NCBI GenBank assembly: GCA_963772455.1
Contig: CAVYXJ010000012.1
Coordinates: forward strand, 128,001-192,000
DNA from: Candidatus Bathyarchaeota archaeon
GTDB taxonomy: Archaea; Thermoproteota; Bathyarchaeia; Bathyarchaeales; Bathycorpusculaceae
Reading direction: 5' to 3'
Length of the DNA: 64,000 nt
The number at the start of each line of letters is the position of its first letter. Positions within the stretch are counted from its first letter, which is position 1. Made by a program: the position numbers and the translations under genes. Shown here piece by piece: positions 40,025 through 42,760 of the stretch. The notes beneath the pieces were generated by a model. It did no database searches. It worked only from the letters and a program-made list of their open reading frames with translations, and was not told the DNA's origin.

Positions 40025-40215
40025 TTGTCTCTTTCTTGTCTTTTAATATAAAAGGTTTGCACAAACATTTCCATATAATTAGCAGCGTTTTGTTTCATTT
40101 GCATGGTAAAGATTGTTACGTACGTATCAAAAATGTGTCTAACCGTAAAATTTTATAGAAAACTTATTTGATACCTGATCAAAAGGCGATATTTGAAGTT
40201 CAGCAGCTTAGCGGT

Positions 40216-40238
40216 TGTGATTTCAAAGTGTAATCACA
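40216..40238. promoter_or_regulatory. Palindrome TGTGATT-N9-AATCACA directly upstream of a TTTATATT box
   Basis: Perfect 7-bp inverted repeat; TATA-like box at 40243-40250. Confidence 0.55.
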
Positions 40239-40270
40239 TTGTTTTATATTTTTGAGACAGCTAACCAGTT

Positions 40271-40410
40271 GGTAGGAATGCAAGGGATAGCCAACAAAAG
40301 TTGAGCGAATCCGGCTGCTAAATAAGGAAAGGCCGTTGCCCACCTACCCTTTTGGCCTAACCTGTTTGGCGTATGGCTTGGTTCGCTTAACTCTTCATTT
40401 TGGGTTGTCT
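40271..40410 (+). ncRNA. Candidate novel ~140-nt structured RNA
   Basis: ~40-bp interrupted hairpin with many G-U pairs; TATA box upstream; T-rich tract downstream; no ORF. Confidence 0.6.
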
Positions 40411-40515
40411 GAAAAGCAATTTTAACTAATTTTTGTAGCGGTAGATTTCCAATATCAGGACTTTTTATTAAATTTGCATAAAAGAAAAAATGTTAAACTA
40501 TTCATAAACGATGTT

Positions 40516-40786
40516 TTGCGTCAGATTGCGCAACATGATAAAGCCCCTTTCACACTGTCAAAAGCCCAACAGCGATAACTGTTGAACGTTAAACGTTCAT
40601 ACGCTAACAGCACAACGCTAAAAGCTCCTCAAATCATCCGCATTTCAGCGTTTAACGGAGAAATTTTGCTCGTTTCGCTTCGACTTTGGATGTTAAAAAG
40701 TGCGAAAATTCTGGATGTTCGTCCGATTGATAGCGATACTGAAAACAGAAACGATGTTATGCTTTTGTGTCGCAATCTGAAAGCAA
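40516..40786 (+). ncRNA. Candidate ~270-nt multibranch structured RNA
   Basis: Nested long-range stems tcagattgcg/cgcaatctga, tttca/tgaaa, ctgtcaa/ttgatag. Confidence 0.5.
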
Positions 40787-41005
40787 TAAGCTATTTTTAG
40801 ACATCTCAACAAATTGGAAACATTATGTGCTTCAACTATCGCAAGGTTACATTTTTAATCTGGTTGATTGCAACTTTTAATGCTAATGGCCTATTTTTCT
40901 CGCTATTTCTAAAGACTTATTGCTTAAACTAAATTTTTTCTAACTACTGTTTGAACCTCTTAACGAAGACTAATGACCCAAAACTGATAGTAGTCATTCC
41001 TGCTA

Positions 41006-41092
41006 GTGAATAGCAGTGAGAAAAAAGATTACCTCGCGCGTATTAAGAAAAAGAAGCCTGAGCCCATTTCCATAAAAATTCCAACGGATTAG
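41006..41092 (+). CDS. 28-aa basic micropeptide (not in ORF track)
   Basis: MNSSEKKDYLARIKKKKPEPISIKIPTD*. Confidence 0.3.
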   Translation: MNSSEKKDYLARIKKKKPEPISIKIPTD

Positions 41093-41172
41093 GAGAACGC
41101 TTCGGATTGATTATTGTTAAACCCGGATACTGAAGAATTAAATGGAACAAAAGGTGAAAACGATTTGAAAGA

Positions 41173-41417
41173 TGAATGGTTCACTGAAAAAAAAATCAAA
41201 GACCGTTCACCATGGGGCAAAAGAGAGTTCAGCCTTCGATTTACCGGCGATGCGCGTTAATTTACCGTATTTTAGGCTGAAAAAACGTCCGATTTCACAT
41301 TTTGAGGTCGGGCAAGAATTCCTTTGCATTCTTCTTTATGGTATTATTCGATCTCAGACTGCCAGGGCCCCCGGTGACTTCTGTCGTGGTTTTCCCCGCA
41401 GGTATTCTGCAAAGAAT
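41173..41417 (+). ncRNA. Candidate structured RNA, four consecutive stem-loops
   Basis: tgaatggt/accgttca, ttcagcct/aggctgaa, gtccgatttca/tgaggtcgggc, ctttgca/tgcaaag; locally GC-elevated. Confidence 0.45.
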
Positions 41418-41484
41418 CTTAATTGCTTTTTTGGTGGTTTAACAAGCAAGCTTTAAATTGCTTAAGTACACACAAGAATAACCT

Positions 41485-41720
41485 ATGAATCGCCAGGAAA
41501 CAGTCTCCTTGCTAAAGGAAATGATAGCTGTTTGTGGGTCATTCTATGATGCTCGAGCAGTATCCGTTCAAAATGGTGGGAACAGTGATAATTTGGGAAC
41601 TCTCATGTTTACTGGGTTCCTAATCCCTCAGATATCGAATGTATACAAAAAATACTTGCTGAACACATTTTAGAAATGGTTACTATTAACGGACGCTCTG
41701 TATTTCGGTCGAAAAAATAA
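41485..41720 (+). CDS. Small M[DN]RxEA-family protein; frameshift near 41595
   Basis: MNRQETVSLLKEM...; shifted frame HVYWVPNPSDIECIQKILAEHILEMVTINGRSVFRSKK*. Confidence 0.65.
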
Positions 41721-41847
41721 ATTCAGTTATAACTTTAAAATTCTTCTTGCAATTCTTGCATGTGTAAGCTTCAATGTTGAAGACCTGATTTGTAAGCGAT
41801 TTGTGGGGTTTCGCCACTTCTTCACCACAGCTTGGACAACTAACCAT
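41686..41847 (-). CDS. Small zinc-ribbon protein, Cren7-like (not in ORF track)
   Basis: MVSCPSCGEEVAKPHKSLTNQVFNIEAYTCKNCKKNFKV... Confidence 0.65.
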   Translation of the reverse strand: MVSCPSCGEEVAKPHKSLTNQVFNIEAYTCKNCKKNFKVITEFIFSTEIQSVR

Positions 41848-42104
41848 GCAAACTCTCCAAAGTTAGAATAAACTAATGATCTGTGATAAAAGTATTAGAT
41901 GGTTTGTTGGCACATATTGAAACAACAAACAAAACTGGTGGAAATTAAATTATAATGGAAGATTTGAGGTTCAAAAAGGGTTTGTACGCTCAATCAATTT
42001 ATTAATTAACCTCTAAGATAATGAGTCTAAGTCACTTGTTTTTGCAGAGGATAAGATCATGTAAACAGAATTTGATATGGGAGTTCTGTTGGTGAGTTGT
42101 TGGT

Positions 42105-42324
42105 TAGTTTTGAGTTATTGTTTGTTCTTCTTGGTTTGGAATAACCATTAATTGTATTGGGTCTTGTTCTGTGTGTTTTTAGTAGTTGGTGTTTGTGGTT
42201 TTTTGTGGTTTGTGTTTCCGATCCAGTATAGGCTCCAGCCAACTATGAAGGTGAAGGCCATTATTGGCGCTAAAAGGAGTATGGTGAGTTTGCTTCGTTT
42301 TTTTCTATTATGGCGTGTTGTCAT
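42105..42324 (-). CDS. Small single-TM protein, frameshifted
   Basis: AGGTGA RBS; MTTRHNRK..SKLTILLLAPIMAFTFIVGWSLYWIG...IQLMVIP..E. Confidence 0.5.
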
Positions 42325-42760
42325 TTCGTCACCTACTACATCTTGTTACTTAATTCTTAATATATAAATTTTGTTAATTAGCAATGCACTATACTTCTGT
42401 AGAACACAAATATTAGTAAAAAAAAATCACAAATCAAATTAACAATATCAAAGGTCAACAAGTTATTTTTTACGATAAACTCACAACTTTTGTGGGTTCA
42501 GTCGTAAGACGCCTTGACCCATTACTGGATGTTACCCCAGTTTTAGATTGTTTAATATTTTAGTCTGCAAGAAAAAGATTTAGGGATTCTGATAACTAAA
42601 AGAAAACATAAATGATAGTCGTCAGTAATACGGCTAAAACTTCAATTTTCCAATCTCAGCACAATTGAAAATAAGCAAGTAGGAAGTAATTTTTCGATAG
42701 TTATATATGCGTAATGTCATCCAATTGAAGTGAAGTTTTGGGTTCTGAGGCAAAAATAAC

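Follow-up and report, generated by a model that had tools for sequence, protein, structure and literature searches.

The window analyzed here is a 64,000-nucleotide stretch of a Candidatus Bathyarchaeota archaeon genome (G000:C12:128001-192000, where G000 is the source assembly; 2.45 Mb in 24 contigs, with a full-length archaeal SSU match). Within it, positions 40040-42760 form a 2.7-kb interval without long open reading frames (ORFs), and this interval holds the block at 40506-40790, in which a ∼270-nt structured RNA had originally been predicted. The following features were recognized there (window coordinates):

40480-40861, + strand: subfamily-1 copy of a repeat family, in its long form, with 84% identity to metagenome contig L086/L085 and 79% identity to G085.
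40484-40503, + strand: A/T-rich promoter-like motif (GAAAAAATGTTAAACTATTC) just left of a strain junction and kept in the sister contig C23.
40504-41341, no strand: strain-variable segment of 838 bp, the largest ORF of which has at most 94 aa; C23 carries 1728 bp instead.
40521-40530, + strand: left arm of a 10-bp inverted repeat, with 9/10 pairs kept in L086 and 7/10 in G085.
40582-40800, + strand: 72-aa ORF with a TTG start, judged spurious.
40602-40729, + strand: core of the repeat family (87.2 bits against the family model R1), best conserved from 40656 (CGGAGAAATTTTGCTCG) to 40715.
40771-40780, + strand: right arm of the 10-bp inverted repeat, within a portion restricted to long-form copies.

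Contig C23 of the same assembly is collinear with the window (C23:1-32124 against 35904-59257) at 87-96% identity, or ∼93% over at least 32 kb, with several indels. The homology ends exactly at 40503|40504 and restarts at 41341|41342, placing a strain junction at each of these positions. The 1728-bp counterpart insert in C23 encodes a Na+/H+ exchanger (C23:4686-6257; Pfam PF00999, 169 bits), and the repeat copy in the window begins exactly where C23 holds this gene. The C23 insert is bounded by a short direct repeat (GATCTCAA..C), and the window has no such repeat. Searches with tblastn and tblastx found no similarity between the two inserts at the DNA or protein level, and on this ground the window segment was rejected as a pseudogene of the exchanger. 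C23 derives from a co-assembled strain or, alternatively, from a large duplication. We also observed that tRNA-Ala(CGC) is present as identical loci on C1, C4, and C20, and SRP RNA as two loci with the same score (C2:8678-8992 and C5:140801-141115); together with the collinearity of C23, these duplicate loci suggest that the MAG holds redundant or strain-variant contigs.

Two further sets of features flank the block. Upstream, a first block at 40204-40413 is non-coding, with stops in six of six frames, and is retained on C23. It shares 75-83% identity with several copies per genome across the genus and, being non-coding and multicopy genus-wide, probably constitutes a small-RNA or repeat family of its own. 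Downstream, three small ORFs at 41485-41673 (+), 41686-41847 (−), and 42148-42324 (−) show protein-level conservation and occur in several copies per genome in the genus; they encode, respectively, a 62-aa protein, a 53-aa zinc ribbon (CxxC...CxxC), and a 58-aa protein with a single hydrophobic stretch. A Pfam scan gave no match for the 62-aa ORF or for the 94-aa ORF at 41172-41456.

The repeat copy belongs to a family with a sequence-conserved, non-coding core of ∼130 nt. Of 119 other genomes in the genus, 10 contain pieces of the 838-bp segment by BLASTN, and six of these 10 share just a 64- to 97-nt core around 40621-40739. We built a sequence-only covariance model of the core (R1) from eight copies that included the window copy, which therefore matches the model by construction (87.2 bits; E = 9.3e-25); other, independent copies scored 26.8 to 84.5 bits. 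At E ≤ 1e-5, R1 gave 23 matches in 18 of 120 genus genomes, including three in the source genome (the C12 copy in the window, C13:85169-85280, and C13:75573-75672), and 36 of the 120 genomes reached E ≤ 0.01 when weaker matches were counted. Copy number is low, at 1 to 4 per genome. In an order-level draw of 151 genomes, the strong matches outside the source genome were confined to four copies in G248, from another genus of the same family, and a metagenome scan recovered 15 loci, 11 of them distinct. Viral contigs (pattern scan), plasmid records, and phage records contained no match to the repeat family, and thus no free element carrying it is known.

Subfamily 1 comprises the window copy, L086/L085, G085, G121, L078, and L077; G109, G128, and G014 are examples of subfamily 2, and the two C13 copies, G127, and G002 are examples of subfamily 3. 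L086 aligns to window positions 40500-40861 at 84%, and G121, L078, and L077 end at 40719. Between species, the core is 78-87% identical, with flanking DNA that is beyond alignment. Nothing but the repeat element aligns when the surroundings of the window copy are compared with those of G121 and G085.

In subfamilies 2 and 3, a 5-7-5 palindrome (CCGCG-N7-CGCGG or CCACG-N7-CGTGG) lies upstream of the core, and its arms are identical to the anticodon stems of the source genome's tRNA-Ala(CGC) and tRNA-Ala(GGC). One family trait applied here was a 5-7-5 palindrome with tRNA-Ala anticodon-stem arms ∼95-110 nt ahead of the core. The window copy lacks it and reads CAACAG-CGATAA-CTGTTG in that place, a hairpin for which the other subfamily-1 copies hold no equivalent. 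On metagenome contig L073 (oriented positions ∼820-1080), a copy resembling subfamily 3 and a core resembling subfamily 2 stand head to tail ∼30 nt apart, indicating that the module can occur in tandem.

In G127, G002, and G111, the palindrome continues directly into the decayed T-arm and acceptor of tRNA-Ala(GGC), a junction that is the expected product of recombination between the att site and the palindrome. In five of six genomes, the distance between the subfamily-3 palindrome and an intact tRNA-Ala(GGC) is 3.96 to 5.55 kb, on the strand that also holds the decayed tRNA 3′ half; the sixth genome, G082, has an imperfect stem, and its core lies 4.7-4.8 kb from tRNA-Ala(GGC). A second att copy with the same loop was considered and rejected, as the palindrome pattern occurs once per element in five genomes.

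The ORF antisense to tRNA-Ala(GGC) corresponds to the first ∼65 aa of a 350-aa tyrosine integrase. The integrase is full-length in G082 (350 aa; PF00589, 32.3 bits; PF16795, 29.8 bits), and its gene contains tRNA positions 33-78. Splitting of the gene into int(N) and int(C) on integration is the mark of SSV-type suicidal integrases in the passages of PMC8371274 that treat them. The location of the tRNA 3′ part inside the integrase gene, together with Int(N) lying over the tRNA, is the signature of this integrase type, and SSV-type features were present at tRNA-Ala(GGC) in all six of six genomes.

In 14 of 24 copies examined, the core is followed 3.6-6.0 kb downstream by a co-oriented Int(N) (9/10 in subfamily 3, 5/11 in subfamily 2, and 0/3 in subfamily 1); the other 10 of the 24 have no nearby Int(N). 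C13, G248, and G082 share the order [full or C-terminal int]-3.7..4.2 kb-[palindrome/core]-4.6..5.4 kb-[Int(N)], and Int(N) overlaps or adjoins tRNA-Ala(GGC) in C13 and G082, the two of these in which the tRNA was sought. The genes between the core and Int(N) vary and include surface proteins in the source genome, a methyltransferase in G111 and G023, and an ATPase in G127. These arrangements link the other copies of the family to the integrase and the tRNA. For three of the five additional Int loci, no copy of the family lies within 7 kb. A decayed Int(C) within the family was also considered and discarded, as the integrase gene with 300-nt flanks matched the copies solely in the tRNA/att piece.

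In the source genome, Int matches are confined to C13. There, a full-length suicidal-type integrase, frameshifted into three tblastn segments (C13:80374-81425), lies between the two repeat copies, which suggests tandem elements beside tRNA-Ala(GGC) at C13:90500-90577. Window positions 30001-55000 have no similarity to Int or tRNA, and the window copy hence does not show the att-region feature of a suicidal integrase element. Other subfamily-1 copies have no Int within 10 kb, and none of eight subfamily-1 and subfamily-2 loci has a tRNA gene within 10 kb on either side. The small ORFs neighboring the window copy found no matches among the islands.

We read 40480-40861 as an orphan copy, devoid of the palindrome, of a hitherto undescribed non-coding module that belongs to integrative elements of Bathyarchaeia. 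The explanation that we favor, tentatively and as one that falls a little short of being probable, is that this module acts at the DNA level, as a secondary att or control region, and that the window copy is a relic. The module comprises ∼350-450 bp of conserved, non-coding DNA and is part of integrative elements in this group of Bathyarchaeia. Its usual order is the 5-7-5 palindrome, with tRNA-Ala anticodon-stem arms, followed by a conserved core of ∼75-130 bp, and it lies a few kilobases upstream of, and co-oriented with, Int(N) of a suicidal SSV-type tyrosine integrase whose attachment site is predicted to be the 3′ half of tRNA-Ala(GGC). We infer that the module may act mainly as DNA, with the palindrome as a putative secondary attachment-like site for the integrase and the core as a putative protein-binding control or arm region of the element; the core may also contain a short transcription unit. 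The window copy has lost its palindrome and stands at the border of a segment in which two co-assembled strains or paralogous regions differ. Given the loss of the palindrome, the lack of a link to an integrase or tRNA, and the position at an edge that varies between strains or paralogs, this copy is most likely a relic of recombination.

The islands at tRNA-Ala(GGC) resemble the SSV-type suicidal-integrase elements, among which the relevant passages of PMC8371274 count SSV1/SSV2, pTN3, pT26-2, and the TKV elements. As in those elements, the att site lies inside the integrase gene and corresponds to the 3′ part of the tRNA, an Int(N) fragment overlaps the tRNA after integration, and islands stand in tandem beside the tRNA (PMC8371274). 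Unlike in the Bathyarchaeial islands, no palindrome-plus-core module is described in these passages (PMC8371274). The Bathyarchaeial case differs further in that most copies of the family have no adjacent Int(C), the hosts are mesophilic, and the window copy is detached.

A second parallel is the accretion of cis-mobilizable elements (CIMEs) and integrative elements (ICEs) in streptococci, in which integrase-less, cis-mobilizable elements accrete beside integrative elements and internal att sites are present. By analogy, the palindrome may be regarded as an internal att-like site that separates two blocks between the tRNA-side att and the outer int fragment, and in G127, G002, and G111 it has apparently recombined with the tRNA att. 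The streptococcal systems belong, however, to another domain of life and use another type of integrase.

Mobile elements of Bathyarchaeia have barely been described, and the titles and abstract openings of the virus and provirus surveys listed in literature searches mention no palindrome-plus-core module. In the portion of PMC8371274 concerned with self-disrupting integrases, these enzymes are known from hyperthermophiles. Our results show that they also shape tRNA-Ala-linked islands in soil and peat archaea of the Bathyarchaeia and that a conserved non-coding module occupies a fixed place in those islands. How suicidal elements stay mobile and exchange cargo is a question raised in the same portion of that source (PMC8371274), and the module would bear on it if it functions as a secondary att site or as a regulatory RNA. 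The remaining general value of the finding is modest.

The main rival to the DNA-level reading is that the family is a plus-strand small RNA (sRNA) gene of ∼100-250 nt, borne by the elements and sometimes standalone, that runs from an A/T-rich promoter to an oligo-T end. We consider this possible but unlikely. The core would in this case act via its sequence, through protein binding or target pairing, and not via a strong fold. Supporting this idea, the conservation edges are sharp, and the left edge of subfamily 1 coincides with the promoter-like motif at 40484-40503; a matching motif stands at the left edge of the five other copies as well (6/6 in total). By eye, the motif appears to resemble the −50 to −30 regions of tRNA genes in the source genome, such as tRNA-Met on C7. 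The core terminates in a run of at least four T in 16 of the 22 rows of alignment A4, with at least 90% conservation of the C-TTT columns, and the mismatches in the hairpin are more often G-U when read on the + strand (6 G-U versus 2 A-C). The identity of the core across species, despite unalignable flanks, also favors the sRNA.

Several results nevertheless count against an sRNA. In subfamilies 2 and 3, inspection of 21 copies by eye revealed no consistent promoter at constant spacing upstream of the palindrome. Convincing covariation was not found: the best core helix had 70.0% of cells paired versus 67.9% in shuffles (14/500) and 65% after a +1 slide. Outside the att pieces, complementarity to the integrase leader or gene amounted to just 8- to 10-nt matches of chance size, and hence no antisense target was found there. 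In the window and its nearest relative, the terminal T-run of the core is lost, so a transcript from the window copy would run on to the T-runs at 40763-40766 or 40794-40798. A separate scan for sigma-70-type promoters and terminators, models ill-suited to archaea, stayed at shuffle level.

Returning to the DNA-level reading, a bolder version of it can be put forward, although we judge it rather improbable. Palindrome and core would together constitute a working second recombination site, with its own short RNA or protein-binding platform, in a two-site, integron-like cassette exchange. If so, the module and the tRNA-Ala att would bracket a ∼4-6-kb cargo slot (surface-protein genes, methyltransferases, and ATPases), an integrase that disrupts its own gene upon entering would drive the exchange, and orphan copies, that in the window among them, would be traces of former exchange points at other places in the chromosome.

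It is a good deal harder to believe that the core is ordinary cis-regulatory DNA that serves as promoter or operator of a neighboring gene, whether the surface-protein gene running divergently on its left or a gene on its right with the same orientation. At L086/L085, L078/L077, and C13 copy a, a surface-protein gene belonging to one family does start divergently ∼240-270 nt left of the core, and a co-oriented gene starts ∼150-170 nt past the core in G127, G023, and G047. The neighbors vary widely, however, with a convergent right-hand gene in at least 12 of 21 copies, and the window copy is separated by more than 450 nt on each side from its nearest ORFs, which are small and unrelated. The divergent gene encodes a secreted surface protein with the N terminus MG.IGKG.SLL... 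and is found at C13:84061-84882 in the source genome, where both C13 repeat copies lie behind surface-protein genes.

A MITE-like, non-autonomous transposon bounded by a 10- to 15-bp inverted repeat, which the original prediction had offered as an alternative, is largely refuted, and we give it very little weight. What stands of that suggestion is that this is repeated DNA linked to mobile elements: like MITEs, the family is short, non-coding, and repeated, contains an inverted repeat that looks terminal, has no coding capacity, and occupies a polymorphic site, the junction position being strain-variable. What does not stand is the proposed unit itself. The genome-wide BLASTN search suggested for dispersed copies returned the 40506-40790 unit as single-copy in the source genome (321-nt query), and the family as a whole has the 1 to 4 copies per genome noted above. 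Moreover, the inverted repeat is not at the unit ends: homologues align beyond both arms (40480-40861), and the short forms have no right arm. Neither the arms nor the C23 junctions show a target-site duplication.

The rod-shaped, ∼270-nt structural RNA closed by a long nested stem now has next to no credibility, even though its pairs are real as sequence. The perfect 10-bp inverted repeat at 40521-40530/40771-40780 is present in the window, and all 54 of the 54 pairs in the nested scheme, 36 long-range and 18 in three local hairpins, are Watson-Crick or G-U. RNAfold recovered the closing stem on both strands. The fold energy of 40506-40790 is not clearly beyond chance: the + strand has a minimum free energy of −68.9 kcal/mol versus a shuffle mean of −61.95 (z, −1.72), with 11 of 200 dinucleotide shuffles folding equally well, and the − strand has a z of −1.83, with 7 of 200 shuffles folding equally well. 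The surrounding 3 kb contains 43 inverted-repeat pairs of at least 10 nt.

Scanning of the whole window with cmscan against Rfam 15 gave nothing at gathering score anywhere in the window and nothing at E ≤ 10 in 40506-40790; the weak sub-threshold matches in the window all fall outside this block. The block is similar to archaeal SRP RNA (RF01857) in size and, in the window copy only, in its rod-like minimum-energy fold. The original prediction had noted that the SRP motif is absent, and the assignment to SRP RNA fails here as well: RF01857 had no match over the finding, and the real SRP RNA of this genome is encoded on other contigs, at the C2 and C5 loci (158.2 bits).

Comparison with homologues decided against the RNA. 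We counted pairs in the two full-length homologues, L086 and G085. Relative to the window, L086 has 36 pairs unchanged, 0 with both sides changed and still paired, 9 with one side changed and still paired, and 9 broken; the corresponding counts for G085 are 29, 4, 5, and 16. Changed pairs were therefore kept in 9 cases and broken in 9 in L086, and kept in 9 and broken in 16 in G085. Among the long-range pairs, the nearest homologue, L086, keeps 32 of 36, 6 of them by one-sided changes, but G085 breaks 11 of 36, and the whole 3′ arm is missing in G121, L078, and L077. Paired columns are no better conserved than unpaired columns (0.83 versus 0.88 and 0.71 versus 0.73). Across the six subfamily-1 sequences, the proposed structure had 72.1% of cells paired versus 72.0% in shuffles, with 248 of 500 shuffles equal to or above the observed value. 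Absence of covariation had been named in advance as grounds for giving up the 270-nt structured RNA, and none was found for this structure, so that reading falls.

Structural conservation is absent from the family at large. RNAalifold energies were weak for subfamily 2 (−10.2 forward and −8.7 reverse) and subfamily 3 (−5.3 and −8.1), and the 5-7-5 hairpin is the sole recurring element in the subfamily folds. The right arm of the inverted repeat is confined to long forms, and alongside it lies a direct repeat of the 5′ end of the element (40746-40762 versus 40503-40519, 88%). We infer from these two features that the long closing stem is not a selected RNA helix and that it may be a by-product of a small duplication, direct plus inverted, of the 5′ end of the element itself. 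A false lead is thereby removed, and no new large structural RNA is to be placed at 40506-40790.

The least credible of the readings is a small protein encoded by the family, whether by the 72-aa ORF or by a frame that stays open in several copies: the window, L086, G085, and G121 share one frame open over 51-74 codons, but it has no ATG start and no Pfam match, the ORF frame is missing in L078 and L077, and single-base indels shift the frame in the window (one extra A at 40696-40700 relative to the five other subfamily-1 copies), in L073 and G104 (1-nt indels within the core), and in all of subfamily 3. The earlier judgment that the 72-aa ORF is spurious was thus well-founded.

We also noted a hairpin in the leader of the integrase gene. 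The pattern (C/A)CACG-N7-CGTGG followed by AG(A/G)TC lies 10-12 nt before the ATG in five of six genomes; the sites are at G000:C13:90578-90800 (L087) and at the same place in G127, G002, G111, G082, and G023. In G111, the leader reads CGTGGTGTTC in place of the hairpin pattern. The hairpin copies the anticodon arm of tRNA-Ala(GGC) and supplies the GGAG ribosome-binding site; it may be an autoregulatory site or a second site resembling att, oriented opposite to the one within the gene.
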